From the NCBI GenBank assembly GCA_965645245.1, contig OZ287070.1, positions 3,100,001 through 3,133,369 on the forward strand: 33,369 nucleotides of DNA. The letters run 5' to 3'. The position numbers and the translations under genes are program-made. This document shows positions 7,717 to 33,369 of the stretch, one piece after another. Every line of letters starts with the position of its first letter. Positions within the stretch are counted from its first letter, which is position 1. The notes under the pieces are model-generated. The model saw nothing but the letters and a program-made list of their open reading frames with translations, searched no databases and had not been told where the DNA came from. This DNA comes from Massalongia carnosa (lineage: Eukaryota).

Positions 7717-7933
7717 GAAGCCATACTCCCCCCGGTCCACCCCACCTTCTTCTGGTGTGGTGACCCCCCTTCATAACCCCCGGTCGGGAGGAGTCGCCCT
7801 CCCCCGATCCGTCTCTTCTTCCGCCGCCTCCCCGTCTCCCCTTCCGGCCGCCGAGCCGATAGACCTCTCCGCCACACACAGAGGTAATTATCTCAAGCAA
7901 AAGTCACCCGTCGGATGAACGAAGGGTTGTGCC

Positions 7934-10677: not shown

Positions 10678-11065
10678 AGCGTTGTTGGTTGAGTTGTGAT
10701 AGATAAATGTAAGGTGTCCTTGAGAATTACATGAATTGGAAAGGCGGTCGTGTAACTAACTCGATTCTGCAGGAGCACATTGCCCAATTGAGTTTATTCC
10801 TGATTTTTAGTAACACATAATCCCGATCTGATTCAAGTGATCAAGTGATGTAACTACGAGAAGTGATCATGCGATAAGTAGCTTAGACCTACCATTGATT
10901 TTAAATTCTTAGCTGCCGTTCTGGAGGATTTTATTGATGTGTTCTAGTGTCGCGTACCGCGCTAACCGAATTAGGGTATTTTCCTGAATCCCCCATGTTC
11001 AAGAGTTATCGCGGTCGCTAGTCATCTCTAAGACCTCGACTGCTCAGCGTCACTCTTCCCCGATC

Positions 11066-13818
11066 ATGCCTTCTACGGAGCCATAGAAAAAACCAGGTGG
11101 TAGGCCTCGAAAGTACTCTACTGCTGATGAAGCTGCAGCGGCCAAGAGACGGCAAAGTCGAGGTTATTACCACAATCCATCGCGCCCGGTTGGTCTTGCA
11201 GGTCCCGTCGACTTTGATGCCTACGAGCCTCTACCTACATCCGATATCCCTAGCGACACCCTGCCAGCCATTGGTCTGCGAAGCAGCCTCCACATACCAA
11301 TCCCTCCGGATCGCGATATAGCGGAAGACTGTGAGGAAGAGCTGGAACCCGAAGCATTCCTAACCCAGATCAACCCCCCTCGAACTACAACTCCAGATTC
11401 CCTGCATGAGGAGCCCGAAATCATTCGACAAGTTGAGAAAATACGCACAGAGGAGGTGACAAACACTGAAGACGCAGAATTTGATGCGGAGGTCACGGCA
11501 CGCTTGGAGGAGTCGGCAGCCCATCTCGAGGCAGCAGCAGTGCTCCAGGCACTACGAATTGGGCAACAAGAGAGGCAGGAGAGCAGCAAGGCCGGGTCAC
11601 AGTATTCTGACTACGCCGCCTAGTAGTTCAGTGATGTCGAATCAGTAGCACCTAGACACAACAGAACACCGATTCATAGTCCACCGAATACAAATATACA
11701 ACAGGGCAGTTCACCGCATACTGCAGATACAAAAATACAGCATACCGCGTAGCGCGCAGAGTGCCCACATCGCAAATCTGAGCCCTGATCAACTAGAGAG
11801 CACATCCTCTAAGCTGGCAAAGTAGCTACGTAAATTCCGGTGCTGCACTCATGAGCAGCATACCGAAGCCGATCGCCAGCATGAAGAACACCAACAACGC
11901 CGAGATGTGCACTCAGAGTGCTCATCTATACCTGATATTACTTCCATTGTTAAACGGTTACACAATGGGGGCATTCCGCTTCCCGATGTCCTCAAAAGCC
12001 CCGGCCTGATGAGAGCCACCGATATCCAGATCGTCGGCTGCAAGGCGGCATTCGAAGGCACTGCTAGTGCTCGCCTGGACGAAGCCACTCCCCATAACGA
12101 TGGACTACCTCCGTGTCTTTGCCTGTCCAAGAAATACGCTACGAGTCGGAAGAATCGTCAACCAAGGGTTAGTTTCGACATCGACAGCACCTGTTGTTTC
12201 CCCAAGAGTCTCGGGTTTGCGCGTCGCGGGATAGAGTGGTTCCCCAAGGCCCATCCCGTCCTCAATCTCACGGGCGACATACACTTTGGGTTGAAGGTCC
12301 TGGTTACACGATCAAGGACAATCCATTCCTAAGCTATGTCCCGCTGCATAAGACACCCCACTACTGCTTTGGGTGCGTGGTTGGCATGATCGATCTTCTC
12401 ATTTTTATCTTCTTTCCCGCCCTGCACAAAGAGAACGATCATGAGCATACCTCGTATCTCAGTAAGTGCGACGAGCAGCTCTGGTTGGATGACATCCTCC
12501 TTCCCTGTATCACCAAGGTTGTTAAGTCTTCCAACATACTGCTGAACTATCCGGCCTCTTCTCGCATAGCCGACCTTGCATTCACGGCGATATCTGCAGA
12601 GAGCCTCAAACGGAAGGAGTCTGCCAACCAGCAGTTAGTTGCCCATACGATCCAGCCATGGTACCTCGATGAGCTCTTTACCTGGGTTGGTAGGACCATA
12701 GATGAGAATCCTAGGTTTCATCGGTTCCAAGGCGCAACACTGTTCACGCAGTCCAAGAGCACCAAGCTGGCAACTAATAACTCTACTGGTTTGGTCGAAG
12801 CATACAATGGCTGGAAGAGGCAGTGGCTGGATGCAGCAGATCCGGAATTCTACAATCCAGATCGCACCTTTGTGGACATTGCAAAGCAAATCACCTCATA
12901 GGACAGCGCGCTTCCTTATGATTAGATACAAGGGAACCACGAAGCCGAGGTGTTCCTGTGGAAGAAATGCTGCCTAGATGGGTATTGCAGGACGAGGATG
13001 ATCCTCAACCCGGATGGAAGCAAGGCTAAAGGGAACCCGAAGCGTACTGTATACTCCTCGGCTACCATGCGAGATACGATGAGCCAGACGCTGTTTGCTG
13101 CACCGCAGGGTGACGAGACCAAGGATGGGCTGATATATTCTCAGTTCTATATGCTGGCCAAGACTCTATTCGACTCTTCGAAAATGTACGTCTTTACTAA
13201 CGACTCAGTGGAGAACCTAGCCCTGTACTCTGGATATGTGCGTTCTCTGCAATAGGATGGCGGAGGTATCACGTTCTCTAGGGGCGTGTGCGAGTTTGCC
13301 TATCTCCACAGCAAGAAGCGGGCTCATGCAAACCTCATGGACAGTCGCTGGAAGTCTTATGGAGTGAGGGAAGAACATCGGATATCCCTAATCATGATGG
13401 TGGAGATATATGAACAGTGGTGCCAGTGGGACCTCTACGACGCAGACGACATAGCAGACATCCCGTCTCCACTGCCATATTACGTTGTACCTACAAGCGA
13501 CTTTGTATGCCTCCTCCACGCATAGATCAACAAATACTGCTTCCTGTTCAAGCATGTCCTTGCCCACACAACTAAGACGTACTCCCTGCCAGAGATGATC
13601 ATCATGGTTGTTGCGCTGCGGGGACTCCGCTTCTGCTACGGTGGAAATATGCTGGTGCGGGAGTTCCTACTGTTTAAGGACCGGTGGAGGGTTGTCCAAG
13701 GAGGGAAGACCATCGTCAAGGAAGGACTCGGGATGAAGGAGAGTATAGAGCTATCCAGGTTAGGGTGGTTCAAGCCTAAGATCAACTGGGAGACGTGGCG
13801 TCTAACCTATATGCTTAA
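11066..13818 (+). pseudogene. Family X copy A2 (two internal deletions, several CAG->TAG stops, retains the native stop codon)
   Basis: Colinear with 26268-29278; deletion near 11731; at 13800/13801 it jumps to the last 18 nt of the gene (tctaacc.atatgcttaa). Confidence 0.9.
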
Positions 13819-13914
13819 TTGAATTGGGGGCTCCATTCAATAAAACTCTTTGTGATCAGATTTACTTAAGCGGCGTACTAGTCATCTGGGGGGGCCCCAT
13901 TCAATTAATTTCAA
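13819..13914 (+). other. 96-bp 3' terminal module of family X, variant A
   Basis: Gap-free alignment to 30549-30644; homology stops after TTTCAA. Confidence 0.75.
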
Positions 13915-13974
13915 CCCAATTCATTTACAAGAAGAGCCCAGATTTATTCCAGAAACTTGGAGCAGATAGCCTCC

Positions 13975-15012
13975 TGCCAGGGTTGCTAGCACCCGCACCA
14001 TGTGCTCATGGGATTTCGGGACCTGGTTTGAACTGAATTCGGTGTTGATACTGGGACGAATGTTCTCCAGTGCTCTTTGACTGGGGACCCTTATTCGTCC
14101 AGATCTTCGAGGTTCGATGGGCTGGCGAGGAATGTCCTCCACTTCATCGGAGTCACTCTCCTCCCCATTCTCCTCTTCTCGGCCTCCCCCCGAAGCATTT
14201 ACTCCTATTGGATGTAGCATTATCCGTGGTGCTGGTGGGGCCGCTTCATTTTGAAATTCCGAACTTCTCGATAATTCAGAGCTCGGAGTTTTCGGAGACA
14301 AAGAAGATGGCGGATTATGACTTTTGTTTTCATCAATAAAATCATCTGGGTCATCAAACAAAGCATCATCGTCTCCCTCCCATGGAATGTCGGCTAGGTC
14401 CTATGCCTTTTTGTCCTTGGAATCATATATATTGCCTTCGTCGACGGTGATATCGCGACAAACTTGGACTTTTCCAGTGAGAGGATCGTAAATTCGATAC
14501 TGATTGTTTCCTTTATACCCAACAAATATCCCCCGCCAGGACTGATCGTTCAGCTTCTTGCGCTTCTCTTTTGGGATATTTACCCACGTCCTTGCCCCGA
14601 CCGTTCTCATATGGCCGAGGAAGGGTTTCGCATTGTTCATGCGTTCATATGGAGTGACCTTCTCGACCCCAGGACTTCTATTCTTGATGTACCCGGCCAT
14701 CTTCAGGACCTCCCCCCAAAGGGACTTTGGGACTTTTTTAGCCTTCATCATGGACCGAGTGGGGACCATGAGGGTATAATTTTGCCTTTCGGCCTTCCCA
14801 TTCTGTTCTGGCACATTTGGTGCCCGGGCCTCCCACTGGATGGCTTCACTCTTTAGGAATTCCTGAAAGTCACCACTGGTGTACTCCCCTCCTCCATCAG
14901 CTCGGAGTATCATTATTTTCTTTCCCGATTGATTTTCTATCCATGTCTTGAACTGCTTAAAACATTCGAAGGTTTGACCCTTTGTTTTCAGCAGGTAGAT
15001 CCACACTACCCC
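13975..15012 (-). pseudogene. Ty1/copia integrase core and downstream linker fragment
   Basis: WIYLLKTK...ILRADGGGEYTS...PEQNGKAER...LWGE...GIFVGY...YRIYDP; internal TAG at 14401; no LTRs; boundaries approximate. Confidence 0.9.
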
Positions 15013-15213
15013 TAACTGTAGAAATCGCCCGTTGTGCGGCGTAACACGAAACGCGTAAGGCGTGATTGGCTGATTTCCCCCCGCTTCGGCGTCGGCACGC
15101 ACCGCTGCACCGTAAAACGTGCACCATAACACGAGAATCCCCGTCGCTGGCAACGCGACCTCTAATCGCCCCACGAGGGAGCTGGGAAGCGGCTAGGGCA
15201 TAGGGAGAGGATC

Positions 15214-18200
15214 ATGAGCGCCCGTTTGGTCTATCTGCCGGAATGGCGGGTGCTGGTGTGCGAAGAGTGCGGCTTTGGCCTCCGTCCCGGTCGCGGCGTT
15301 TGGGTTCGGCACCTGAGGCAAGCACCGCATTGCTTGAAGGGCCCCGAGCTCCGGGCCCAGGTCGAGCTGTTCGAGAGATACGACCTCTGCGCGCCGGAGC
15401 AGGAGCTCGCGCAGCTGCCGGCCCATGCGATCCCCGGATTACGGCTCCTCGACGGTTTCCAGTGCTTGACCTGCGCGGCTGGTCTTACCCAAAGCCTCCA
15501 AGCTATCGAACGGCACGTGTCAAAAGCCCACCAGCTCAAGCCTGCATGGCATAAGAAGAACCCCCTCTGGCGGTCGTGCAAACTCCAGACTGTCTTTGCC
15601 GAGAATCGCTTAGTTCGGTATTTTGTGGTAGAGGATGAGGGAAGAGCAGAGGACCAGGGAGCTCCGGATACAGGAGCGCGGATAGCTTGGGTTCAGGGGA
15701 CGAAGACTTCTTTCAGCTGCTCGACCAGGACGCCGCTGTTGCAGAGGAGGATGCTAAGGCAGAGGCCAACATCGTTCATGGCTTCGATGGTCACCGATCC
15801 GCTGTGGTGCCGTGGCTGAGACGGACGGGCATCGAGGAGCACACGCGGGGCTTAAAGAAGGACGAGATGCACGCCTCTTTTGCAGTACTGAAGGCTGCCG
15901 AGAGCGAGCCCGAGCCGTTCCTGATGCTAGAGGTGATGGACGAGATCTTTCTAGAGGCGCACAGCTGGTGCTTCGATGGCCCCAACTGCATGCTGACCTG
16001 GCCACGGCAGCTGGCATTGAGCCGCTTCCATACTGCCGCTGCCCCAGGGCAGAAGACGCGCGTTCGACCCGAAGAAGGAGCCTAATACGCTCAAGACCAA
16101 CTTCGGCTACTGGAAGCAGTTCTTGACCTACAGCTACCGGGTGGCCTACTGGGGCGACCACTTCACCGCGGCCGACAGCGACCAGCGGACCCCCGAGAGC
16201 CATATCCAGCTCACGGGTGCTCAGGAGAATGCGTGGGAAGTGGCTTTCCAAAATGCCGTCGAGCAAGACGGGCCTGCGCTGAGAAAGGCCATGTCGGTGC
16301 TCTCAATAGCGCTGATCTGCCACGAATTTGGAGGCAATCGGTACAGCTCCTCACTGCTCAGCTTCTGCGCCATGCTCAGCGTCAAGCCACACACCAAGAC
16401 TTGGAAGGAGCCGGGCAATTACAATAGCTGCTTGTCCGGCGTAATCTGGATTGTGCAGCTAATCATCTTCCACGCCAGCGCCTGTCTGGAGAAGGCGGAG
16501 CTAGGGGATACACTCGAGCGCATTGAGCAGTATTGCGGGCAGTTCTTGAAGCAGGACACCGAGACTCCTATGGGCGAGATCCTCGGCTGGCGCTTGCTGC
16601 TGTTTACTGTCTCGAAGGCGGTTGTTGGGCCGCACCAAGCGCAGTGGGATGTGGACGAGAAGGTCCTGACCTACCGAGACGTTGATTTGCATATGGATCA
16701 CGTGCCGCGGCTCTTACTCTCCGAGTTCCAGCAAGCCCAGCACCTACTCTACGACGAGCTGATATTCGGGACCCAGAACCTTCCGCGGATGCGTGCTTGG
16801 GCATTAAAGGACAACTTAGACGCCGATGCCTTTGGCTAGTTCTTGGCCAGCACCGGGTGAACTTTGAGCTGGTAAAGCCACTGGCGAGGTCTTTGCTAAC
16901 CGTTATCCAAGACTCGAAGCCGTTGCGGGACTCGTTCCTGGATGCCAACGCGGATGGCGCTAAGGTCTGGCGGGAGAAAGCGATTGAACGGTATGAGGCC
17001 GTGGCTAACGAGTTCCTGATAAGGCTCTTAGTCTTGATCCACATGGGCTCTGGCCAGCCTCTGCGCGAGAGTGAACTGTTCTCCGTCACCTGGCGTAACA
17101 CCCAGCGGCGGCGAAGCGTCTACCTCAAGCACGGGCTAGTCATGCTGCACACCACATACCACAAAGGTCAGCAGCAGACGGGCAAGTTTAAGGATAATAT
17201 CCGGTTCTTGACTGCACCTATTGGAGACCTCTTGCTGGACTACTTGGTAGTTGTAGTCCCGCTCCTCCAGGTCTTCCTCCGCCGGTCTGCCCCGCATGCC
17301 CTTATCTCTCCGTACTTGTGGTGGCAAGACGGCAAGGTCTGGGCGGAAAACCGGCTCACGCGGTGCATGGAGCAGGCGTGTAGTCGGGCCAGCGTCCCCC
17401 GGCTACACATTGCCAACTGGCGGCAGATGACGGTCAATATCGTCAAAACTAAGTTTGCAGCTGACGTTGGGTGCTTTGAGGTTGACGACGGGGCTAACGA
17501 CGAGGATGCAGAAGAGATCGAGGCGGACATTCGGATTATGACCAAGCAGCGGAGCCATAGTACGCGGACTGTCAACCGGGCATATGCAAACCAGCACAAT
17601 GCTAACTTTGGGAACGTGTGGGATGGCCTTATCCGCCGGAATCTGCGTGCTTCAACTCTGTGGAAGGACTTGTGGGGGCTTGACCAGCTGCTTGGACCTG
17701 CTGGGAAGAGGAAGCGGGATGGTGAAGACATTGGTGGTCCGCAAATGCTCAAGAAGATCGCCATGGGGGTCTACCGGCCACGGAAGAAGTGGTCAGCTGC
17801 GGCTCTGCTGAACAGTGCAAGAAAGCTGTACCTAGATAACACGCTGAAGTGGAAGTCAGCAGCGCAGGAGCGGGCTATGACTACTATCATGTCATGGACT
17901 GAGCAGGTGGTAGTTATCATGGCTACTGGCGAAGGGAAGAGCCTGCTGTTCATGCTGCCTTGCATCCTCCCGGACGCTGGGGTGACGATCTTGGTCTTGC
18001 CACTCGTATCTTTACGAGGAGATCTCCTCCGCCGAGTTGGAGAATTGGGGATCGATTACTTGGTGTGATCGCCTAGCGAGCAAAGAGATGCGCCTTTGCT
18101 GTTTGTCACAGTTAAAGCAACATGTACGGAACAGTTTCGGACTTACGCCCACAAGCTCGCGGCTACGCAAGACCTCGGGCGCATTATATTGGACGAGGCT

Positions 18201-19532
18201 CACTTGACTATCACAGCGTCCGACTATCGCGAGGCTATGGTTGACCTCGCCCTGATCCGCAACGTCCGTACGCAGTTTGTTTACTTAACAGCTACTCTAC
18301 CACCGACAATACAAGCTAGATTTGAAGAGCAGAACAACTTGGTGAACCCCAAGGTGATTCGAGCATCGACGAACCGGCGAAATCTGTTCTATATGGTACA
18401 GCGGGCCACTGGGCGAGGAAGTCTGCTCGAAGAGGGCACGCGGAGGGCAAGGGAGGCGTGGGAGAATAGCCAGCTCTTGGATCGGGCTCGAGATAAGATC
18501 ATCTTATACGTTCGGACAAAGGAAGATGCTGCTACGCTGGCTGAGCTACTCTGCTGCTCCCAGTACACAGCTGATATAGGCACGGCTGAGCAGAAGGAGG
18601 AGCTGCTGAGAATGTGGCCTGCCTCCTCGGACCAGCCGTACATGGTGGCCACGTCTGCATTAAGCGCTGGCTTCGACTATGCCCACGTTCGCTTAGTTGT
18701 GCATGTCAAGGAGCCGTCGTCTTTAGTCGACTTCGCCCCTGAGTCTGGTCGGGCCGGGCGGGATAGAAAGGAGGCGTACTCGCTAGTCCTTCTCTCACCT
18801 ACATGGAAGCCGCAAGCCGCTGAGAGAACCGCGGTCGAGAGAAGAGCGCTGCACCGCTACCTCCTCGGGCAGGACTGCCGCCGGGCATGCTTGAGTGAGC
18901 ACCTCGACTCGGAGCCGTATTGGCGACAGTGTCAGGCTGACGAGGACGTTGTATGCGACGTATGCAGCGCCGGCCCAGCTCTCGCTCCGTCTTCCGCTCC
19001 GTCTCCCGAGCCGGCTCTTCAGTATACTGGCAGTGCAGCTATTCAGGAGAAGCGACGTCGAGCCGAGCTCGAGTTAAGCGGGTACCAGGAGGACCTGCTC
19101 GCAGTTCAAGGCACGCGTCTGCTCTGCCGGGCATCCGACGATGCCTGAGACCACGTCTTCCCTACGTGCTGGCGTCGGTTCGAGTTCTTTGAGGCTCGCA
19201 ATCGTGTTAAAAAAGCGAAGCAAGGAGGGCAGTGGATTACTCCGTACCACGCATGCTACTGGTGCTATAATCCCAAGGCGGTCTGTCCGCGAGCGGACCC
19301 AAAGAGTAACTGCCAGAGCTGCCTCTACGCGGACATTGTCATGCCGCTCTGCTATGGCATCTTCCACGGAGGCGGGGCCGAGCAGTGGCTAGAAGAGCGG
19401 TTTCAGCGGACGTTTACAGACGTCGATGACTTTCTTAAGTGGTGTGGTCAGGCAGCTAGCTTCGGCGGGGGTAAGGCAATCTGGGGAGTCTGTGTAGCTG
19501 CGGCTGCCTTAATTCAATTTAAGTTATACTAG
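15214..19532 (+). pseudogene. TLH: Telomere-linked RecQ-like helicase (TLH family), ~1440 codons: N-terminal Zn fingers, YR-like domain, SF2 helicase, Cys-rich C-terminus
   Basis: CEEC..HLRQAPH and CLTC..HVSKAH; Walker A ATGEGKS, LDEAH, TAT, ESGRAGRD, CRR..C..CDVC. Three frameshifts (~15680, ~16060, ~16845) and TGG-derived stops at 16837, 18066 and 19146. Confidence 0.88.
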
Positions 19533-20007
19533 GCTAGGTGTAAGGTAAAACGGGAGTTTAGACTAGGGTTGAGTTAATTATAAATTTAAAGTATAAAGTA
19601 TCGAATAGAGAAGGATTAATTATGAATAGGCAAATAGGCCTTAGGGTCGATGCCTACTCCCCAGATTTCCTTCGCTTTTGCCTTTGCCTCAACTAATATA
19701 CGGGCGTGAGTAAGCCGAGGCACAGCCTACGACCCCCCCCTCGGCCGCTGACCCAATCCCTGGCGAGGTGCCCACGCCAGCCAGACCTAGGGTATTACAT
19801 GATAGCCTAGATCCTACAAACACTGATTCTCCTCTATCCGAGCGGACGGCTCTACAGCTAGCCAAGCAGGTCCAGAAATTTTCGGGCTGTACACACGAGG
19901 AACATGCGGAGGCAGAAGGCAAGCACCAGACACATCACCGACGCCCCGATGTACATTCAGAGTACTTCTCTATTCCGGGGATCACCTCGATACTTAGGGG
20001 GAGCTAT

Positions 20008-22758
20008 TGAAGAAGGGTAGTCATGCGTGCTAATGGAAGGTGGTGGTACGTAATGATAGATGGCGAACTGAGCAGTGAACACACACACACACAAAACGAC
20101 TGAATGGACCTTCAACTGCATAGACATGAAAAGAACTCGACGACTGAACGACTAGTTGATGCATGAAATGAACATGGGTCGATGACTACGTGACACGACG
20201 ATGATGATGACAGCGTAGGTGATAGAAGATGATGTCCGGAGATGATGAAGAAAACGCCAGCAAAAAACCCGTTTTATCCCCACACAGGCCTGCCATGTCA
20301 CCTGACCATAGATGACACATGTCGCCCCACCACATAGCCTCACACCCCAAAGATGCCGTCCCCTGGCATCTGTCAACACTTCGCCAGCTCACCTCTCCTG
20401 ACCGATCAGATCTCGTCTCTGAGCCCTCGCCTCGCCTCTAGTCTGTCCGCCTTACTAGTCTGCCCTGCGGGCCAATCACAGGTCACATGATCACTTCACA
20501 TGTGAAAAACACGACTCACATCGACCCCTTTCCGCTGCTGAATAGCCTCTATCATCGTCACTATTGCCTGCCAGCCCTCGGGCGTGGACACGAACTGAAT
20601 AAATCGTTGTTGACTGACTGATGGGTCTGTTGACGGTGATCCGGACGACTGCATGGAGTTAGCCTGAGGCGGAATGAACGCACCGCTCGCCCGATAGGCC
20701 TCAAATGTTGACGACGTGACCGTTTCAGGTAATGGCAAGGCATCAACCGGTGGTGCAGCTGGTAGGGCTGATGATAACGACGGAGGTGCTGACGATGCTG
20801 GTGCTGACGCAGACTGATTAGATATGCCGGGCCTGTCAAATGGAGCGGAACAATATGAAGCCGGAGGTGCAGGTAGTGTCCAGCGCGTACGTTTTACACG
20901 TCTAGCCCGTGCGTGCCTAGCTCGGTCTGACTACCATGGCCCTGACCTACATGGAGGTGGAAACGACCTCACCCGATTGGCTGACACGGTGGCACTAGCT
21001 GATAACCGTGCGAGAATTTCTTTCACTTTTGTCAGCAACTCGGTCAAAATCTCTCGACCCACGACAGTGTGCAGCAATATTTTCGTGTTATCAGCACCTG
21101 CTAGTTGATTTAGGGCTTCCGAAAGGGGAAGGCTAGACAGTCGACATATAGGAACTATCCAGGTGGAGGACTGCAAATATAAAAACCCTAGTGCTCGACG
21201 AGAGATAGCTGACTGAATGAGCGGCATTGTAGACAGATATTCATCGACATTTGCCGAAACGAGGTCACTAATTGAACGAATGATGACGCTGAATGTGTTG
21301 AACGTGCTGAACGAGAAGGTGCTAAATAGTCGTCAATTTCGACGTAGCTGACGTCCGGAAGACGTCCGGCTATAGCTAGCTCCACATTGGCCTCAGAGGC
21401 TGAATGAAATGATGTTGATTTTGGCCCTTCCGGCCCACGTGTAGATGACTCAATTGCTGACTCAGTATCAGCTGACTCGATAGCGGTGATGACAGGTGCC
21501 GAAGACACGGCAGAACGAAAAGCGGTGACGGGTGACGGTGGTGCGGTAGACGGTGCAGACATGAACGGTGCAGACGGTGCAGACGGTGCAGATATATTGA
21601 CCGGTTGTGACACGGCGACTGCTGGACAAATAGGCAGCGATTCTGGACAGTTTGTATGGGCCACATAGGCCATTTGTACCCCATATTTCGCGAACAATTC
21701 CACCATGCTCATGTATGACCTTGTTGATGCAACCGAGGCAGTTGATGATGACACTGACGGTGCTAATGAATTGACAGACGATGCCCTCGACACGGAGATG
21801 GACCGGCGCTGTCTCGACAGATGACGTCGCTGTCGCTTGCTCATAGGTGCGCTGGGTGAAGAAGATGAAGCAGATAAAGGTTAAGATGTAGATGGAGGTG
21901 TACTAGTGCTAGAGCTTGGTGCACTAGTGGTGGACGTGGAAGTGGACGACTCGAACGACTCGGACGACTCGGAGGCAGAAACGGATGCTCTTTTGGTAGG
22001 CCTACCACGTTTCGCTCGATTATGGTGTCGCTGTCGTTGACGTGCTCGTTTTGATGGTAGTGGAGTAGGTGAGGTCGGTATAGTACTCTCGGACACGGTC
22101 GCATTGGCCCAAATGCAGAAGGTAATGCACGAGGACATGGCCATCAGCGCAGTGAAAAGAATGATTAGAGAGTTCCTGGAATGTACGTCTAAAACGCATG
22201 CAGTAGGTGCTGGGATGGTAACGGAAGCGGTAGCGGTGGTAAAGAAGCTGATGGGGGCCATGTTGCTCGATTTGGTGCTGAAGGACTCGGTCGTGCACGG
22301 TCGGAGGTAGAGTAGTCAGAGTGATCAGAGGTGAAACAAGGAGGTTTTTCGACGTTTGATGCTCAGTTCAACCGCTCAATTGTACCAGTACAATCATATA
22401 TCGCACCGTGGTCGCGAATGAAGATTGGTAGTCGTGCGTGCTAATGGAAGGTGGTGGTACGGGATGATAGATGGCGAACTGAGCAGTGAACATACACACA
22501 TACACAAACGTCTGAATGGACCTACGACTGTATAGACATGAAATGAACTCGACAACTGAACGACTAAACGACTAGCTGATGCGCGAAAAGAACCTGTATC
22601 GATGACTACGTGACACGACGATAATGATGACAGCGTAGGTGATAGAAGATGATGTCTGGAGATGATGAAGAAAACGCCAGCAAAAAACCCGTTTTATCCC
22701 CACACAGGCCTGCTATGTCACCTGACCATAGATGACACATGTCGCCCCACCACACCAA
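20008..22758 (-). mobile_element. Non-autonomous LTR element without pol; complete LTR 20008-~20520, truncated LTR 22419-~22754
   Basis: Direct repeats 20008-20334 and 22419-22754, both starting TGAAGA; minus-strand PPT-like GGAAAGGGG just before TGTGAG at 20520; degenerate Ser/Thr/Pro-rich ORF inside. Confidence 0.75.
20496..22261 (-). pseudogene. Degenerate Ser/Thr/Pro-rich ORF of unknown function with an N-terminal hydrophobic segment
   Basis: 22261-21881 and 21844-21188 are in the same frame across one TAA; further ORF pieces run to 20496. Confidence 0.45.
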
Positions 22759-22882
22759 GCCGGAGGAAGGCCACTGCCGGATGTCCTCAGTAACAGCAAC
22801 AGCCTTGGATTTGCATGCCGAGGTGTCGACTGGTTTCCTAGAGTCTACCCTTTACTCAAACTTACGGCGAATATACATTTTG

Positions 22883-22993
22883 TACGCAGCGGAATAGGTT
22901 TGGTTGGGTTCGGTTATTAAAATCAGAACCCAACCAAATAGGTTTTTTGTTGGGTTGGGTTATCGTTGGGTTACCCAACAGAAAAAATCTGCG
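22883..22993. mobile_element. Possible DNA-transposon terminus with clustered TTGGGTT/AACCCAA motifs
   Basis: Starts abruptly where copy C homology ends; about five short motifs in both orientations, as in hAT-type subterminal regions; no partner end found. Confidence 0.35.
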
Positions 22994-23327
22994 AGTGTAA
23001 ATGATGACTACTAGCATGACTACCACAAAACACGAATGCAACTTTTATTATATAAGTTAGGATTTTTAATTATTAGTAGATTTATTTTAATGACTATCAC
23101 AAAGTAAAGTGTAGATTGTAGATGAAATATTCACTTCGTTGACGTCGAACCAACAAAAAGACTATTACAAATTCATATGCTATCTTCTATCTTCTATCGA
23201 AGTATGTCGCCTATTCATCTCTTTCTATTCAAAACTTGTAAAGAAAGTCTCCCTCATGATGTCGGAATCCGGGGTGAAGGTTAGAACACAAGTGGTGGAT
23301 TTTTTGGGCGCAATCGGTCGGCAAGAA

Positions 23328-24339
23328 TGTAATACGGATGGCGTTAGAGGGATACGTGATCGCCTATGGCGGTTGCGGGATTAAATAGCGTGGACCATGC
23401 CGTAGTACGAAGTCGAATAAGCCGTCGAGGCTGACACACTGCCATCTTGCCCCGAAACTTCGGAGTTATTGTTATCACGTTCTTCACTACTTACAGATCA
23501 AACACCTGTCGAGGCCGTGGTGGTAGATTGCCATGGAGTGTAAGGCGGACTCCTGTGGAGACGCCGAGGAACTCTATATGGGATCTACTGGCCTACTCGG
23601 AGCTACTGGATCTCTTGATGGATCAAGAGAGGTAGCAGGAGGCACGGCTCGCTGGACGCAGCTTGAGCTAGGCTCCCCGGTGTAAACTTCAGCTTCAACC
23701 TTTATTACTACGTTGGTAGTGATGTCGGCTGAATGAACCTACATGACCTCGTTGTCTAGACCTTGTGTCTAGAGGCAGGTCAGCAGTGTAGCGAGGTATT
23801 CAGTCGGAGGTAACCTTCCATCACTAGGTAGTGGTGACGGCGAAATGAAGCTACATAGCCTGAGGCATGTAGTGAGGGATCTAGCCGGGGGTGGAATTGT
23901 TCTACCTTGCAAGGGAAGGTCTAGAAGGCTGCTCGAGGCTGACTAGATAATCCAGCGAACGCCGAGTTCGTGGATGGATCCTGAGGGATGGTTGGATGTA
24001 ATGCGATAAAGTCGGATGTGGATTGCAAGGCTGTAATTCTCGCAAGGCTCCTAAGGTTCCAAGGCTCCCAAGGCTATAGGCTTGGGGTGAGTAGGATAAA
24101 TACCAGAACGAATCTTGTAGTATTCGTTAGCAATTAGTCTTTATTCTATGAACAACCTACGTTTGGGTCTCGGACGAGATCTCTTGGTCTAAGCACTTCC
24201 ACATCCATTAGTTCTTTGGATCACGTACACTCTCGGAGACTAGCACGTAGTAGCTATCTTCCTCCTCTCACGCTGAGCATTTCCCCTTTCGAGATCAGTG
24301 TCGCTCGTGATAAGCTTACTGGTCTCGTAGCCCATTACA
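23328..24339 (+). mobile_element. Solo LTR (1012 bp)
   Basis: TGTAAT...ATTACA termini; 5-bp TSD AAGAA at 23323-23327 and 24340-24344; second copy at 32213-33220. Strand inferred from a TATA-like GATAAATA near 24095. Confidence 0.92.
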
Positions 24340-24735
24340 AAGAACTTCTATCGTCATTCTCATTCAGTCGTTAACCATTGTAAGCGTTGTTGGTTGCGTT
24401 GTGATGATTCAAAGAGGAGAAGTCGTGTCACTCGATTCCGCCGGAGCACCGTAACGCGCTAACCGAATTCGGGTTTTTTCCTGTATTTCTCATGTTAATA
24501 CTAATCTTAACCACGAGAAGTGATCGATTATGCGATGATATGAATGATGTGATTATGCCATGAGATCATGAGATGAGTAACTTAGACCTGTCATTGATTT
24601 TACATTCTTAGCTGCCGTTCTGGTAGATTTTATGGATTTTTTCTCGTGTCACCTACCGCGCTATCCGAATTAGGGTTTTTTGCTAAATTCCTCATCTCTA
24701 GGACTTCGACTGCTTAGCGTCACTCTTCCTCGATC

Positions 24736-25850
24736 ATGCCTTCTGCGGAGACATTGAAAAAATTATAAGGTAGGCCTCGAAAGTAATCTACTGCTGATGA
24801 AGCTGCAGCGGCCAAGAGACGGCAGAGTCGAGGTTATTACCACAATCCATCGCGCCCGGTTGGTCTCGCAGGTCCCGTCGACTTTGTTGCCTACGAGCCT
24901 CTACCTACATACGATATCCCTAGCGACACCCTGCCTGCCATTGGTCTGCGAACCAGCCTCCACATACCAATCCCTCCGGATCACGATATAGCGGAAGACT
25001 GTGAGGAAGAGCTTGAACCTGAAGCATACTAAGGATAATCCCCCCCGAACTGCAACTCCAAATTCCCTACACGAGGAACCCGAAGTCATTCAAAAAGTTG
25101 AGAAAATAGGCACAGAGGAGGTGACAAGTACTGAAGACGCTGACTATGATGTGGAGATCACGGCACGCTTGGAGGAGTCGGCAGCCTATCTCGAGGCAGC
25201 AGCAGTGCTCCAGGCACTACGAATTGGGCAACAAGAGAGGCAGGAGAGCAGCAAGGCCGGGTCACCGTATTCTGACTACGCCGCCTAGTAGTTTAGTGAT
25301 TTGAATCAGCAGTCCCTAGACACAACAGCACACCAATTCATAGTCCACCGAATACAGATATACAACAGGGTAGTTCACCGCATACTGCAGATACATGACG
25401 CAGTCACAGCAGGACTTCCAAGGCTCAGTCAAGTAGCACCAGTAGTAGACGTGGGACTTCGTTCCCAACGCAGATAAACACGCTATTATCATGGATGAAG
25501 CCTTTGACAGGTGTCGATTCTAACCCTACTTCGCCCACTTCACGCCCATCTCCAACCATTGCTATATCTACACCTACGCCCTCGGATCTTCATCAACCTG
25601 CTGGATCCGTCGAAGCACCACCACCCATGCCTTCAAGAGAACCCCCCCTAGGCCAAAGTCCACAACTAGCAGTACAGCAGGCACCGCGTAGCGCGCAGAG
25701 TGGCCACATCGCAAATCCGAGCCCTGGTCAACTTGAGAGCACATCCTCTAAGCTGGCCAAGCAGCTACGTAAATTCCGGTGCTGCACTCATGAGCAGCAT
25801 ACCGAAGCCGATCGGCAGCATGAAGAACACCACCAACGCCGAGGTGTGCA
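24736..25850 (+). pseudogene. Family X copy B1 (5' quarter only)
   Basis: Colinear with 26268-27388; breaks at the same nucleotide as A1 (cgccgaggtgtgca|agcgttg). Confidence 0.85.
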
Positions 25851-26267
25851 AGCGTTGTTGGTTGAGTTGAAATAGCTAAATTTAAGGTGTCCTTGAGAAT
25901 TACATGAAATGGAAAGGCGGTCGTGTCACTCGATTCTGCCGGAGCACCATACCGCGCTAACCGAATTCGGGTTTTTTCCTTTATTTCTCATGTGAATCCT
26001 AATCCTAACTACGAGAAGAAATCGATCATGCGATGTGAATGATTTTATCATGCGATGAGATCATGCGATGAGTAACTTAAACCTGTCATTGATTTTACAT
26101 TCTTAGCTGGCGTTCTGGTGGATTGTATTGATGTTTTCTGGTGTCACGTACCGCGTCGTGCGCGTTAACCAAATTAGGGTTTTTTCCTAATCCCTCATTG
26201 TTCAGAGCTATCGCGGTCTCTAGTCATCTCTAAGACTTCGACTGCTCAGCGTCACTCTTCCCCGATC

Positions 26268-29200
26268 ATGCCTTCTACGGAGCCATTGAAAAAACCAGGT
26301 GGTAGGCCTCGAAAGTACTCTACTGCTGATGAAGCTGCAGCGGCAAAGAGACGGCAGAATCGAGGCTATTACCACAATCCATCGCGCCCAGTTGGTCTTG
26401 CAGGTCCCGTCGACTTTGTTGCCTACGAGCCTCTACCTACATCCGATATTTCTAGCTACACCCTGCCTGCCATTGGTCTGCGAACCAGCCCAGACATACC
26501 AATCCCCCCGGATCGCGATATAGTGGAAGACTGTGAGGAAGAGCTTGAACCCGAAGCATACCTAACCCAGGACAACCCCCCTCGAACTGCAACTCCAAAT
26601 ACCCTACACGAGGAGCCCGAAATCATTCGACAAGTTGAGAAAATACGCACAGAGGAGGTGACAAATATTGAAGACGCAGACTATGATGCGGAGATCACGG
26701 CACGCTTGGAGGAGTCGGCAGCCCATCTCGAGGCAGCAGGAGTGCTCCAGGCACTACGAATTGGGCAAAAAGAGAGGCAGGAGAGCAGCAAGGCCGGGTC
26801 ACTGTATTCTGACTACGCTGCCCAGCAGTTTAGTGATGTCGAATCATCCGCATCTAGACACAACAGCACACCAATTCATAGTCCACCGAATACAGATATA
26901 CAACAGGGCAGTTTACCGCATACTGCAGATACACACCGCAGTCACCGCAGGACTTCTAAGGCTCAGTCAAGTAGTACCAGTAGTAGACGTGGGACTTCGT
27001 TCCCAACGCAGAGAAACACGCTATTATCGTGGATGAAGCCTTTGACAGGTGTCGATTGTAACCCTACTTCGCCCACTTCACGCCCATCTCCAACCATTGC
27101 TATATCTACACCTATGCCCTCGGATCTTCATCAACCTGCTGGATCCGTCGAAGCACCACCACCCGTGCCTTCAAGAGAACCCCCCCTAGGCCAAAGTCCA
27201 CAACCAGCAGTATAGCAGGCACCGCGTAGCGCGCAGAGTGGCCACATCGCAAATCCGAGCCCTGGTCAACTAGAGAGCACATCCTCTAAGCTGGCCAAGC
27301 AGCTACGTAAATTCCGGTGCTGCACTCATGAGCAGCATACCGAAGCCGATCGCCAGCATGAAGAACACCACCGACGCCGAGGTGTGCACTCAGAGTGCTC
27401 ATCCATACCGGATATTACTTCCATTGTTAAAGGGTTACACAATGGGGGCACTCCGCTTCCCGATGTCCTCAAAAGCCCCCGACTGATGAGAGCCACCGAT
27501 ATCCAGTGCGTCGGCTACAAGGCGGCATTCGAAGGCACTACTATTGCTCGCCTGGACGAAGCCAATCCCCATAACGATGGACTACCTCCGAGTCTTTGCC
27601 TGTCCAAGAAACACGCTACAAGTCGGAAGAATCGTCAACCAAGGGTCAGTTTTGACATCGACAGCACCTGTTGTTTCCCCCAGAGTCTCGGGTTTGCCCG
27701 TCGCGGGATAGAGTGGTTCCCCAAGGCCCATCCCGTCCTCAATCTCACGGGCGACATACACTTTGGGTTGAATGTCCCTGGTTCCACGATCATGGACAAT
27801 CCATCCCTAAGATATGTCCCGCTGCATAAGATATCCCACTACTGCTTTGGGCGCGTTGTTGGCATGAGCGATCTTCTCATGTTTATCTTCTCTCCCGCCC
27901 TGCACAAAGAAAGCGATCATGAGCATACCTCGTATCTCAGTAAGCGCGATGAGCAGCTCTGGTTGGATGGCATCCTCCTTCCCTGTATCACCAAGGTTGT
28001 TAAGTCTTCCAACATACTGCTGAACTATCCGGCCTCTTCTCGCATAGCCGACCTTGCATGCACGGCGATATCTGCAGAGAGCCTCAAACGGAAGGAGTCT
28101 GCCAACCAGCAGTTAGTTGCCCATACGATCCAGCCGCGGTACCTCGATGAGCTCTGGACCTTGGTTGGTAGGACCATAGATGAGAATCCTGGGTTTCATC
28201 GGTTCCAAGGCGCAACACTGTTCACGCATTCCAAGAACACCAAGCTGGCAACTAATGACTCTACTGGTTTGGTCGAAGCATACAATGGCTGGAAGAGGCA
28301 GTGGCTGGATGCAGCAGATCCGGAATTCTACAACCCAGATCGCACCTTTGTGAACATTGCAAAGCAGATTACCTCACAGGACAGCGCGCTTCCTTATGAT
28401 CAGATACCAGAGAACCACGAAGCCGAGGTGTTCTTGTGGAAGAAGTGCTGCCTAGATGAGTATTGCAGGACGAGGATGGTCCTCAACCCGGATGGAAGCA
28501 AGGCTAAAGGGAACCCGAAGCGTACTGTATACTCCTCGGCTACCATGCGAGATACGATGAGCCAGACGCTGTTTGCTGCACCGCAGGGTGACGAGACCAA
28601 GGATGGGCTGATATATTCTCAGTTCTATATGCTCGCCAAGAATCTATTCGACTCTTCGAAAGTGTACGTCTTTAATAACGACTCAGTGGAGAACCTAGCC
28701 CTGGACCCTGGATATGTGCGTTCTCTGCAACAGGAGGGCGGAGGTATCACGTTCTCTAGGGGTGTGTGTGAGTTTGCCTATCTCCACAGCAAGAAGCGGG
28801 CTCATGCAAACCTCATAGACAGTCGCTGGAAGTCTTATGGAGTGAGGGAAGAACATCGGATATCCCTAACCATGATGGAGGAGATATATGAACAGTGGTG
28901 CCAGTGGGACCTCTACGACGCAGACGACATAGCAGACACCCCGTCTCCACTGGCATATTACATTGTACCTACAATCGACTTTGTATGCCTCCTCCACGCC
29001 CAGATCAACAAATACTGCTTCCTGTTCAAGCATGTTCTTGCCCACACAGCTAAGACGTACTCGCTGCCTGAGACCATCATCATGGTTGGAGCGCTGCGAG
29101 GACTCCGCTTCTGCTACGGTGGAAATATGCTGGCGCGAGAGTCCCTACTGTTTAAGGACCGGTGGAGGGTTGTCCAAGGAGGGAAGACCATCGTCAAGGA

Positions 29201-30548
29201 AGGACTCGGGATGAAGGAGAGTATAGAGCTATCCGGGTTAGGGTGGTTCAAGCCTAAGATCAACTGGGAGACGTGGCGACTAGCAGCACCACATGGTGAG
29301 AACATCCTGGTTGGGAACATGCTTATGCACGAGGAGTATAAGCGAAGGTGGAGAGTAGTAAAGGATCTCCGCGACGTCTTCATTCGTTTCAACCAAGCGG
29401 CGTCATGGTATGAGAGGTACAATGTGCAGGAGAACCCTCGATTGCTTAAGTCCTGGCTGGAGTACCTTCACGTTCTTAACCTCGAGCAGTTTGACGCAGA
29501 TATCTGGAAGGCCATGCACAAGATCAACAAGCAGACTATGGAGCTAAGACGCGAAGGTGCAAAGCCGCCTGCAGAGTTTAGGTTCTGCTACCGTGACATG
29601 AAGAGGATGTTCCTAGTCGACGCAGTTACTGGACAGCCAGGTTCACCGCACATGGACACCGGGAACAAGATGCGGTTCGACAAGGCTATAGGTCTCCTCA
29701 ACTTCCTATTCCTATCCGATGAGGAAGAGCGGCGTGGCTGGGGTAACAAGCCGTACCGCGTGATCCTGAACAAGACCTTCGTGATGCTAGAACAGCGTCT
29801 TGGGTACGACCTGGCGGATCGATGGCTTAATGACTTCTTACACCTCATCCGGCTGACGCACTGGATCCTTCCATACCCGTCTAATGGGGGTCTCATTACG
29901 TCGACCAAGACCAGTCAGAGCCGGGGACTTAGGCGGCAGATGATGTGGTTCTCGATGGTCTACGCAGACCCAGCGCACGCCGAAGTCCCGTTCAAGCACC
30001 CTCCTTCAACGCTGTATAGTCTTTTGAGCCGTGCCCGGGCACAAACATTTGGACGTTCCCAGGAAGAGCCGCGATGGGGCACGGCACAGCTCCTAGCAGC
30101 ATTCAAGGTGGAGGGGGTCCTGGCCAGTGGGCAGGAGGATTTCTGGGTTGCCGGAAAGATGAGCATAGGATATGGGGGACTCGAGCCTCTCTGGGAGCGT
30201 GGGCATCCACCGAGGCTGAAGATGCTCGAGGAGATCCGGCAGAAGAGCCTAGATGAGCTTGAAGAGCTGATGGCTGGACAGAGTGTCGAGCCGGCAGCTA
30301 ATGGCGCGGCGGCAGACGACGAGCCAGAAATTGACGACGTAATAGATCATCAAGCCCAGGGTGGCGAGGCTGGTAGGGGGGCCGATGCACCAGCTCCGCG
30401 TGCAGCTGCCATTGCGGCTGTTGCTGCTGGCCGTAGCGTGTTTGCCGCGTTTGCCAGGAGTTCTAATGCTAGCCAGAGTGGTGACAGTCTAGCTGCTGGG
30501 AGTAACAGTGGCAGTAGCGTGTTTGTCCCATCTAACCCATATGCTTAA
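26268..30548 (+). pseudogene. Family X copy B2: full-length ~1426-aa uncharacterised protein with one in-frame TAG
   Basis: The 315-aa and 1054-aa ORFs share a frame. The only interruption is TAG at 27213-27215, where A1 and B1 have CAG. N-terminal GGRPRKY AT-hook-like motif. Confidence 0.9.
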
Positions 30549-30644
30549 ATGCACCGTAGGTACGGTGGAATATAACTCTTAGGGACCAGATTTACTTAAG
30601 CGGCGTACATGTCATCTGGGGGGGTACGGTGGAATAACTTTCAA
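30549..30644 (+). other. 96-bp 3' terminal module of family X, variant B
   Basis: Hairpin caccgta-gg-tacggtg; exact 14-bp direct repeat ggtacggtggaata at 30559 and 30623; core shared with 13819-13914. Confidence 0.75.
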
Positions 30645-31214
30645 GGGTTGGGTGCTATTCTACCCTCTGGGCCGATTTTCTTGATTCAAGCGGTCATAGA
30701 TAGCCCGTCTTCGAAATTGTAACATATACTTCAAGGGAAAAATTCCGATCATTCCTTGATTTTAGAAAAATCGCGGCGAAAAGGGTGTTTGAGGAGGTTT
30801 TGAGCGGTGAAAGTACAGGAACATCAAAACGCGCCGCCGCTTAACATCAGCAGATGATGAGTACCGTGAAATATAATGTATATATAAATTGTACAGTTTC
30901 ACTCGGCGATTCCGAATATGCAAAAATGAACGTTGTCGCATTAAAATATAGTTGTCAATTCCATAAAACCATTCAACTTCATTCAACATGAGATCCCGCT
31001 TGCGCCCACTTTGCGAATAAGCGAGAGCCCATATCCCTAACCACACAATGGAAAGCAAAACTTTCGCACTTTTTAGCTAGCACTAGAAATAGCATTCGTT
31101 ACCAATACAAGCCCTCAATAGTCATTGTGATCAGGTAGAATTGCTCCCCGACTCTGTAGCTATCTTGGCCGAAAGTTATATCGTCCCTTCTGTTGTGGCT
31201 GCATTGTTGCAACC

Positions 31215-32212
31215 ATGGGGAGCTCTTTTGTCATGCCCAACGACGCCCTCCCCGATTCACTAGACGAGCATCGTCACTTCCTCACCAATGTGTTTAATAA
31301 CATAATTAACTGCGAGGCATATCAGAAGCAAAGACCTATGAAGGTTTAGTCTTACACCCTGTTACTCTCCAGTATGCTCAGCCTACTGGAGAAGATGCGC
31401 AACCAGCCCACGATTGATCAGCTCCAAGCTACCATCAACCAAATAAAGAACACTACAGAGCAAACGCTCACTAAAGTCACCTATGTCGAGCGAAAGCAAG
31501 ACACCCCCCGCACAACACCCACTACCTCCTCCGCGGCCACTACTGGCTACAAGAGGACGATGACCTGGGCAGAACGGGCAGCCTTTGCTGCCTCGGCCCC
31601 AACGATCTCTACACTTTCGGGGACGTCCATCCCTGCTCCTATACTAGAAGAGAAAGCTCGTGAAATCGTCGTCAAACTGAACAACGAAGCCATAGCAAAG
31701 GATCTGGCCAAACTGGCCTCCTCAGCGCTCAAAGAAAGAATCAACGCGGCAATATCTAACGCGTTAAAGGATCATAACAACACGAGAATTCCGACCAATC
31801 AAAACGCTCCGGCCCCCCCTATTTCCAATGGCACAGCCACGGCAGCAGCCGTAGCAATAGCAGCAAGGGTCCTCCCTATCGGAGACCTACAGGTAATAGT
31901 CAACAACGCCTCAGACACGGAACGCTAAGAAAAGACACCCGATGGGCCATCAGCCTATCGAGCAAAAGCTACTATAATACAGCCAAGCTTCGGTTTAATC
32001 GCGCACTTTGTACCGGCTAATGTAAGCATGACAGACATCAAGGAACGCCTCTGGGAGGAAAATAAGTCACATATGCCCGTTAGGAATAGGGTAACAGAAG
32101 TAGAATGGTTGTCCCGCACGAGTAAGATAGGAGCCACAGCTAGATGCATGGTGGTATACTTTGAGAACGAATTAGACTGCAACACCATTTTGGCCTCGCA
32201 GCTATATTTGGA
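31215..32212 (+). pseudogene. Non-LTR retrotransposon (Tad1-like LINE) ORF1, truncated by the LTR insertion
   Basis: Coiled-coil-like region, TWAERAA, REIVVKL, ARVLPIGDL, FGLIAHFVP, CMVVYF..E..CN.IL; TAG at 31347 and a frameshift near 31925. Confidence 0.7.
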
Positions 32213-33220: not shown

Positions 33221-33369
33221 TAGGGTTAGGGTTAGGGTTAGGGTTAGGGTTAGGGTTAGGGTTAGGGTTAGGGTTAGGGTTAGGGTTAGGGTTAGGGTTA
33301 GGGTTAGGGTTAGGGTTAGGGTTAGGGTTAGGGTTAGGGTTAGGGTTAGGGTTAGGGTTAGGGTTAGGG
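33220..33369 (+). repeat. Telomere, (TTAGGG)25
   Basis: Perfect TTAGGG array to the end of the window, G-rich strand running outward. Confidence 0.99.

Follow-up and report, generated by a model that had tools for sequence, protein, structure and literature searches.

The stretch that we analyzed is a 33,369-nt piece of the Massalongia carnosa assembly GCA_965645245.1 (contig OZ287070.1, forward-strand positions 3,100,001 to 3,133,369), here called the window. It is a chromosome end, with (TTAGGG)n repeats running on the forward strand from 33220 to 33369. Two forward-strand copies of a gene that we term X run into a short module, and this module and the larger repeat unit to which it belongs are the subject of this report. 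Copy B of X (26268 to 30548) has its full length but is interrupted by a single in-frame stop at about 27216 to 27218, and a partial N-terminal duplicate precedes it at 24754 to 25839. Copy A (9581 to 13822) comprises a partial N-terminal duplicate and a body (11087 to 13807) from which about 1.25 kb of the 3′ part is missing, a deletion already recognized in the initial annotation. In copy A, X is truncated at about residue 958, equivalent to 29278 to 29282 of copy B, and is then joined to the module. Both copies in the window are defective. The module had been described as starting directly after the X stop codon. That is correct for copy B, where the stop is the TAA at 30546 to 30548, but not for copy A, where the deletion shifts the frame and the stop is a TGA at 13820 to 13822, inside the module.

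The two copies of the module, 13819 to 13914 and 30549 to 30644, align without gaps, with 70 of 96 positions identical and 26 mismatched, and both end in TTTCAA, as first described. Seventeen of the 26 mismatches fall within three 8-nt blocks that together make up 24 positions (hypergeometric P = 1.5e-7, with the blocks fixed in advance). As a post hoc control, the best three 8-nt windows were chosen on permuted mismatches, and 1 of 300 permutations reached 17. Identity between A and B is 7/24 (29%) in the blocks, 63/72 (87.5%) in the rest of the module, and 1432/1502 (95.3%) in the adjoining X coding sequence. In type B, block 1 is GCACCGTA (30551 to 30558), and blocks 2 (30561 to 30568) and 3 (30625 to 30632) are both TACGGTGG, each within a copy of the 14-nt repeat GGTACGGTGGAATA (30559 to 30572 and 30623 to 30636). 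The corresponding A-type words in copy A are GAATTGGG (13821 to 13828), CTCCATTC (13831 to 13838), and CCCCATTC (13895 to 13902). Block 1 is inverted relative to blocks 2 and 3 and to two further blocks, 4 and 5, described below.

The blocks also match one another within each copy. Blocks 2 and 3 agree at all 8/8 positions in copy B and at 7/8 in copy A. Block 1 is complementary to block 2 or to block 3, with 13 of 14 cells paired in each case and four of seven pairs changed on both sides, while controls with a slid partner paired at 14 to 50%. All changed pairs are Watson-Crick except for one G-U, between blocks 1 and 2 of copy A. The complementarity of blocks 1 and 3 extends to about 14 bp in type A (TTAATTGAAT.GGGG / CCCCATTCAATTAA) and to 7 to 8 bp in type B, with 7 of 8 bases complementary in both types; the adjacent blocks 1 and 2 form a hairpin. 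These results agree with the earlier statements that the three blocks were swapped in concert, that block 1 is a near reverse complement of block 2, and that block 3 is a direct repeat. Given the identity pattern, the block matching, and the pair changes on both sides, the blocks were replaced rather than decayed.

Between blocks 2 and 3 lies a conserved core (30573 to 30624 in copy B and 13843 to 13894 in copy A). The CAGAT/ATCTG bracket noted in the initial annotation is present in both copies; in copy B it forms a stem (30587 to 30591 with 30614 to 30618) around a 22-nt loop, followed by a G7 run (30618 to 30624). Within the window, the 22-mer CAGATTTACTTAAGCGGCGTAC is confined to two sites, 13857 and 30587; no other appears even when up to three mismatches are allowed, and shuffles have none. 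Stem and loop are nearly invariant between the two copies, a sample too small to show constraint, and the conserved stem-loop contains no known nick motif. Block 3 is followed by the conserved patch AATAACTTTCAA (30633 to 30644), the last stretch that can be aligned between the window copies; past TTTCAA, homology of the A and B flanks was not significant (256 of 500 shuffles scored at least as high). In copy A, TTTCAA is directly followed by an extra A-type block, CCCAATTCA (13915 to 13923), which matches block 3 plus the next base at 8/9 positions and is the perfect reverse complement of TGAATTGGG (13820 to 13828). On the other side, A/B homology resumes 18 nt before the module, within coding sequence, at 13801/30531 (TCTAACCyATATGCTTAA), and the A-type module of copy A is accordingly listed as 13801 to 13914.

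Using public contigs, we found that the module behaves as the end of a larger, discrete, and repeated unit. Eleven public runs, none of them listed for RNA, covered 29600 to 31000, of which X1 (a lichen metagenome), X2, and X4 were informative; contigs of X1, X2, X4, and X6 were aligned to 28800 to 31400 at 80% likeness. The left boundary of the unit in copy B, TCTAACCCATATGCTTAA (30531 to 30548), comprises the last four codons (NPYA) and the TAA of X. In joints and loose ends from X1, X2, and X4, the boundary at 30531 to 30534 is joined to at least five different partners. These are full-length X, X cut at 29282 (window copy A, and X4 too, with A-type letters), X cut at 29615 with A-type letters (X1 and X2), two unrelated sequences (X1 and X4), and module position 30579, which produces a 49-nt partial head duplication (X4 and X2). 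Microhomology of 3 to 4 nt (CTA/TCT) is seen at the boundary junctions. The boundary reads CTAACCC, a telomere C-strand heptamer, and CCTAACCC in one other context. The flanks CCCTGTGATGTTCACTC and TTTCTACCCCACCAAT from the public contigs are absent from the window. Depth in the bin 30540 to 30626 was several-fold higher than in bins of X 3′ coding sequence, at 2891 versus about 800 in X1, 56566 versus 1776 to 10272 in X2, and 144 versus 0 to 10 in X4. The module is therefore present in many copies that lack that part of X. Variant contigs are numerous and the summed contig depth is high, with 649 X2 contigs over 2.6 kb. No head-to-tail joint of two unit ends was among the joints listed, the core had 0 matches in viral contigs, and a 17-mer of the core was not found in published papers.

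The initial annotation had proposed subfamilies with their own binding words, and both types do recur in X1, X2, and X4, with words at further sites. A-type blocks 1 and 2 (GAATTGGG GG CCCCATTC) occur in X1 and X4, and A-type block 3 occurs in X2 (four contigs) and X4 (two contigs). About 180 nt downstream, block 4 (30803 to 30809) reads GGTTTTG AGCGGTG AAAGTAC with its flanks in the window; A-type X1 contigs have GGTTTTG CCCATTC, followed by the same downstream sequence. Block 5 is a fifth B-type site, AGTACCGTGAAATA at 30860 to 30873, where AGTACCGTGAAATATAA at 30860 agrees with GGTACGGTGGAATATAA at 14/17 positions. Between the module and block 4 lies a B-type segment (30645 to 30802) that is partly or wholly skipped in some copies: joints 30624->30698, 30625->30809, and 30659->30810 mark copies without part or all of 30625 to 30809. 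Its right end, 30780 to 30802, is conserved in A-type copies, as seen at an X1 loose end before 30810. One other copy keeps the B flank to at least 30659, at least 15 nt beyond TTTCAA. Because the flank is shared beyond TTTCAA and further type-specific blocks lie downstream, TTTCAA is a conserved patch between blocks and not the terminus of the family that it had been taken to be.

The distal part of the unit (30810 to 31047) is conserved and high copy. Within it, CGCCGCTTAA (30835 to 30844) is a perfect inverted copy of TTAAGCGGCG of the core (30596 to 30605). The left-end motif CCCATATGCTTAA recurs as CCCATATCCCTAA at 31028 to 31040, with a telomere-like C-strand octamer, CCCTAACC, at 31035. 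It is at this repeated motif that X1 and X2 contigs part from the window sequence, at 31031 and 31047. In copy B, the unit would thus run from 30531 to about 31047, roughly 0.5 kb, with an uncertain right end.

Other delimitations and readings of these motifs were tried and rejected. A target-site duplication formed by CCCATATGCTTAA and CCCATATCCCTAA around an element at 30549 to 31027 does not fit the boundary in other contexts, which is at 30531 and not at 30549. A transposon with terminal inverted repeats, or a miniature element of that kind, with a TTAA duplication (piggyBac-like) was not borne out: type A has TTAA at both arms, but in type B the right site is TAAC, and the repeat boundary in public contigs lies 14 to 17 nt outside TTAA. 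CTAAC as an intron branch point was discarded since type A has no AG acceptor. Type-specific words in the 5′ region of X (GCACCGTA at 24446 and CCCAATT at 10783) are unreliable, as their orientations disagree and GAATTGGG is found 10 times in the window versus about 1 expected.

The core had been expected to be linked to X genes. To this expectation the X loci of other fungi gave a clear answer: neither the core nor alignable sequence was found at any of the 33 loci with a 3′ end (44 metagenome loci were fetched), where the best blastn-short matches were 11 to 15 nt long (E >= 0.42), and none of 120 listed X homologs ends in ...PSNPYA. Since 0/33 other X loci carry it, the module is a young, lineage-specific addition and not a feature of the X family. 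Hairpins in general are no family trait either, as a perfect hairpin of at least 7 bp is present in 2 of 23 distinct X tails, or 0.22 per kb versus 0.20 per kb in coding sequence.

X itself has 166 relatives at E <= 0.001, all annotated as hypothetical, in Leotiomycetes (Hyaloscypha, Pseudogymnoascus, Botrytis) and Dothideomycetes (Pyrenophora, Plenodomus, and others). The family proteins are about 1400 amino acids long, with an N-terminal GGRPRKY motif (GRPRK being AT-hook-like), a Cys/His-rich motif, and a C-terminal SGSVFVPS. The initial annotation had cast X as the Rep side of a rolling-circle origin, and we found no Rep or HUH domain, other known domain, or fold match to go with that role. 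Eight X proteins had no Pfam family, and a profile search against Protein Data Bank sequences returned no relative. When a poor AlphaFold2 model of X (1054 amino acids; pLDDT 56.9) was compared by Foldseek with Protein Data Bank structures, nothing reached E <= 0.001. The wide VIA-align search with the same poor model reached a best Z of 5.3, on helical segments only, and an ESM Atlas search had no usable match. A separate model of residues 80 to 340 (pLDDT 45.6) was too poor for a fold search. With models of this quality, the lack of a match excludes no fold.

X genes face telomeres. The distance from X to real telomere repeats downstream is 2.7 kb in the window, 5.2 kb for L007-L012, and 4.2 kb for L032. 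A G-strand telomere-like 12-mer occurs no more than 300 nt past the stop in 6 of 23 distinct X tails versus a background of 0.06 per 300 nt. The relic G-strand repeats lie 27 to 212 nt after the X stop, in loci L028 (+82 to +97, TAGGGTTAGGGTTAG), L001, L002, L006, L015, and L035. These relics in 6/23 tails suggest that X was often the last gene before the telomere. The X family is thus widespread and multicopy, faces telomeres, and occurs in Leotiomycetes, Dothideomycetes, and lichen-associated fungi; next to the helicases, it may represent a second family of telomere-linked genes.

Several side observations concern X and its surroundings. In both window copies, the same 1.5 kb covering the promoter region and the initial ~320 codons is duplicated in tandem (9307 to 12350 and 24462 to 27500; spacings of 1503 to 1538), and this duplication is therefore older than the A/B split. 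The 5′ region of X contains a reiterated motif of about 35 nt, CGCGCTAACCGAATT(A/C)GGGTTTTTTCC, at about 9300 to 9500, 10790 to 11000, 24450 to 24700, and 25940 to 26200; it includes one telomere unit (TTAGGG) and may be a site for a telomere protein in the promoter. In loci L021-L027, which represent a different X lineage, the palindrome GGCATGTTNANATGCC lies 122 to 144 nt past the X stop and is repeated about 410 to 430 nt further on; it is also upstream of X in L023 and at four places in L027. This palindrome may be an unrelated small element or the counterpart of the module in that X lineage. Five other X loci were examined for flanking terminal inverted repeats, and the only pair found, in L027, is unrelated.

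The rest of the window is a mosaic that includes truncated Gypsy, Copia, and DIRS-like pieces. At 1085 to 3672 on the minus strand, a reverse transcriptase and RNase H adjoin a weak tyrosine-recombinase (Phage_integrase) match, and this element is a DIRS-like retroelement. The extra A-type block at 13915 to 13923 of copy A is followed by a truncated Copia integrase fragment on the opposite strand. A telomere-linked-helicase-like gene at 15214 to 19148, with an OrsD zinc-finger region and DEAD and Helicase_C domains, is probably a pseudogene because it is spread over at least four open reading frames. Between this gene and an inverted internal copy of the terminal 1 kb lie short extra X fragments (19747 to 20004 and 22801 to 22881) and a direct-repeat pair about 2.4 kb apart (20003 to 20334 and 22414 to 22754). 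The inverted copy itself (23348 to 24339 versus 32213 to 33220, 85 to 96% identity) begins exactly at the junction of telomere and unique sequence (GGGATACGTGATCGCC...), with at most 4 to 5 nt of repeat remaining. Its appearance is that of a scar left by end-to-end fusion or by folding back, and X copy B sits between the two arms.

We tentatively favor, without granting it even odds, the reading that the module is the left, X-proximal end of a subtelomeric repeat element, about 0.5 kb long, lineage-specific, and present in many copies. Its hairpin and subterminal words differ by subfamily, and the termini of Helitron2/Helentron elements resemble it most. Such an element would have been joined onto the 3′ end of the telomere-linked X, so that it now supplies the last four codons and the stop. 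The unit exists in at least two old subfamilies, A and B, with common patches at the start, the CAGAT/ATCTG core, AAT.A.TTTCAA, 30780 to 30802, and from 30810 onward. The step in identity from 95.3% to 87.5% and the A-type tails at three X positions indicate two such old subfamilies. Each has its own 7- to 9-nt word, placed once in inverted orientation by the left end and three to five times in direct orientation further in. The tail of copy A is recombinant: a whole A-type tail was gained through a junction at the left boundary of the unit, and three simultaneous changes in place are therefore not needed. The same drop in identity and the A-type tails at other junctions fit the initial suggestion that the end of copy A came from a sister subfamily.

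The words would be the recognition or hairpin motifs of the element itself, namely, a terminal hairpin with subterminal inverted and direct repeats. They would be kept matched within a subfamily either by one trans-acting specificity that all copies have to fit or by pairing with block 1. Functional coupling would be the simplest reason why each subfamily retains a single word at its four to six sites, spread over 300 nt between conserved patches; 7- to 9-nt words that far apart are poor substrates for gene conversion. As a fixed boundary is joined to many partners by microhomology, a DNA end probably arises there, and the element may be or have been mobile, or be processed as a free DNA end, with its words bound or paired. 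Of the initial proposal that the module is the end or origin of a mobile element, the part that stands is the end of a discrete repeated unit whose boundary has at least five partners; for the rolling-circle origin we found no support.

The termini of several Helitron-type elements offer the closest parallels. In FoHeli1 and FoHeli2 (PMC5148889), the 5′ termini are duplicated, an inverted repeat lies 38 to 51 bp from the 3′ end, and the terminal hairpins have subgroup-specific stems. DINE-1/HINE elements have 12- to 15-bp subterminal inverted repeats with a nearby inverted repeat and a conserved core (PMC4067079). Right-terminal stem-loops of Helitrons show compensatory changes, and elements are found at chromosome ends (PMC13085455), while in a Botrytis cinerea strain a Helitron-like element resides in nearly all subtelomeres (bioRxiv 10.1101/2022.03.07.483234). 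Like these elements, the unit has a fixed end starting with TC, a hairpin near that end with a subfamily-specific stem in a retained architecture, and a conserved core. Toward its other end, about 12 nt from TTTCAA, the word is found once more as a subterminal inverted copy. It also shows partial duplications of the 5′ terminus and no target-site duplication, and its subtelomeric residence has precedents among Helitrons. Subterminal inverted repeats combined with a 5′ hairpin, the trait of HINE/DINE-1, are found in the unit as well, although the type B arms are only 7 to 8 bp.

The unit departs from these elements in other respects. No Rep/helicase partner was found for it, and the only helicase in the window is of the RecQ type and telomere linked. 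Unlike HINE/DINE-1, it has no stem-loop 8 to 35 bp from the 3′ terminus, and its only conserved stem-loop lies 5′ of block 3. Unlike Helitron2, it shows no insertion into TT or T(T/C) and no T-runs, its left flanks ending in A, G, T, or C. Its word is reiterated in several direct copies over about 300 nt, and only about 70 nt separates blocks 1 and 3. That the unit belongs to a Helitron-type family is not established.

Yeast X/Y′ elements and the telomere-linked helicase regions of fungi provide a second comparison. Like these, the unit is multicopy and modular with indel variants, and it lies a few kilobases from telomere repeats (less than 3 kb; the module in the window is 2.6 kb from the telomere). 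Like other subtelomeric repeats, it sits beside a telomere-linked gene family and a helicase-like gene and has telomere-like remnants at its boundaries. Unlike in the yeast and helicase regions, these remnants are C-strand and only 7 to 8 nt long. We know of no description of a type-specific reiterated word around conserved patches as a feature of subtelomeric repeats, and a limited search of the literature on lichen subtelomeres returned nothing relevant.

Several points weigh against the favored reading. Only two copies are fully aligned, and both come from the window. The evidence from other copies consists of short loose-end consensus strings, among which 18 of the 107 loose ends and 40 of the 231 variant places were listed, so that further types may exist. 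As the runs include a lichen metagenome, the contigs need not all come from a single genome. We found neither a transposase nor a Rep gene tied to the unit, no empty site or target-site pattern was seen, the left-boundary flanks did not show A|T or TT targets of the Helitron type, and the stretch from block 3 to the putative 3′ end has no hairpin. Sequence past TTTCAA is common to B-type copies, which may have spread by segmental duplication of chromosome ends rather than by transposition. The heptamer at the boundary and the octamer at 31035 would suit a chromosome end that was eroded and captured just as well.

This last point leads to the strongest of the alternatives, which we nevertheless consider rather unlikely: the unit would be an inverted former telomere-adjacent sequence, its boundary an old terminus with 3 to 8 nt of C-strand repeat, and the words features of telomere-adjacent DNA. 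Eroded X-bearing ends would have been repaired by microhomology joining, in keeping with the 3 to 4 nt seen at the junctions. CTAACCC at the boundary, CCTAACCC in the one other context, and the C-strand octamer CCCTAACC at 31035, where the contigs diverge and a CCCATAT motif repeat adjoins, can all be read as remnants of such an end. The window even holds a precedent in the inverted terminal 1 kb (23348 to 24339 versus 32213 to 33220), which starts at the telomere junction with almost no repeat. The setting also fits, with X facing telomeres that lie 2.7 to 5.2 kb downstream (window, L007-L012, and L032) and with the telomere-like 12-mer of 6/23 X tails. However, the same non-telomeric T (TCTAACC) at three or four junctions suggests a fixed end rather than variable erosion, and end capture gives no reason why 8 nt or less was retained each time. 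In a window with 38 telomere-like 7-mers (about 24 expected), a single 7-mer carries little weight. Nor does end capture explain the matching of words within a type; a transposon-like terminus is ranked higher because it explains the words too. It is also unlikely, in our judgment, that the pattern has no function at all, with A and B being old paralogous versions of a fast-evolving subtelomeric flank spread by ectopic recombination. The matching would then come from quasi-palindrome template switching (blocks 1 and 2) and from short or target-site-like duplications (blocks 2, 3, and 4). Truncated pieces of Gypsy, Copia, and DIRS-like elements, together with X fragments and inverted copies of the terminus, do make this subtelomere a mosaic, and indels bounded by blocks (30625->30809 and the 49-nt head duplication) show slippage or recombination at the words. 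The fold of copy B does not beat shuffles (z +0.82), and X-tail hairpins are not family-wide (2/23 tails, 0.22 versus 0.20 per kb coding). Yet words of 7 to 9 nt that are 64 to 240 nt apart are too short and distant for ordinary gene conversion, and yet there are four to six matched sites per type with conserved patches between them. Block identity is at a random level (7/24) beside flanks at 87.5%, and five junction partners at one 4-nt boundary are unexpected for random rearrangement.

An RNA role, offered as an alternative in the initial annotation, gained no thermodynamic or Rfam support, and we regard it as quite improbable. In this explanation an X 3′ UTR (untranslated region) or a subtelomeric non-coding transcript would fold into a hairpin of blocks 1 and 3 around CAGAU/AUCUG, with block 2 as an alternative partner. 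RNAalifold on the two copies does select this structure, with 4 of 20 pairs compensatory, the minimum-energy fold of copy A is the long block 1-block 3 stem (z −2.35), and the module begins at the X stop codon. Against this, the copy B fold has a z of +0.82, with 166 of 200 shuffles at least as good, and the minimum-energy folds of A and B differ. Rfam 15 gave 0 matches at the gathering threshold in the window, and the two chance-level rows at E <= 10 in 30400 to 31200 both lie outside the module. Three to five direct word copies, some of them 180 to 310 nt off, are superfluous for one hairpin, the changed pairs suit double-stranded DNA equally well, and the module is also found without X in front of it. 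Least probable of all, and hardly to be credited, is the rolling-circle origin or terminus with a nick-site stem-loop, replicon-specific iterons, and X as a Rep-like enzyme. Iteron origins such as the geminivirus origin and the pT181-family dso combine a conserved stem-loop with short replicon-specific words in direct and inverted orientation, which change in concert from one relative to another. The unit resembles them in its layout of one inverted and several direct type-specific words around a stem-loop, at 4 to 6 sites per type; X is multicopy and has the AT-hook-like GRPRK near its N terminus. Unlike those origins, the unit is chromosomal and subtelomeric, with no sign of a circular or single-stranded form among the contigs; no HUH Rep gene or known nick motif was found with it, and it neighbors a protein without a recognizable domain. 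X lacks a Pfam family (eight proteins), a Protein Data Bank relative, and a fold match (with a poor model), the module is at 0/33 X loci of other lineages, the X family shows no enrichment of tail hairpins, both window copies of X are defective, and the module occurs detached from X. A bolder reading, which we hold to be very unlikely, makes X plus the tail a new telomere-associated mobile element of Leotiomycetes, Dothideomycetes, and lichen-forming fungi. X would recognize the subfamily words around the stem-loop at the end of the element and use this end to copy or join the element onto eroded chromosome ends, and the A and B words would mark co-evolving specificities of protein and site.

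Taken together, the unit is discrete, occurs in two types with extra blocks, has a recurrent boundary, and is absent from other X lineages. Whatever its origin, TCTAACC is a precise junction hotspot that can be traced across genomes, and X is a widespread, uncharacterized telomere-linked family without a known domain that stands beside the classical telomere-linked helicases. Were the words neutral, the unit would be a clean example of subfamily recombination that mimics covariation. If they are true recognition sites, this chromosome-end repeat would keep a private address code around a fixed core. It would then give a handle on how eroded subtelomeres of fungi, here probably a lichen-associated one, are rebuilt, be it by transposition, by end capture, or by both.

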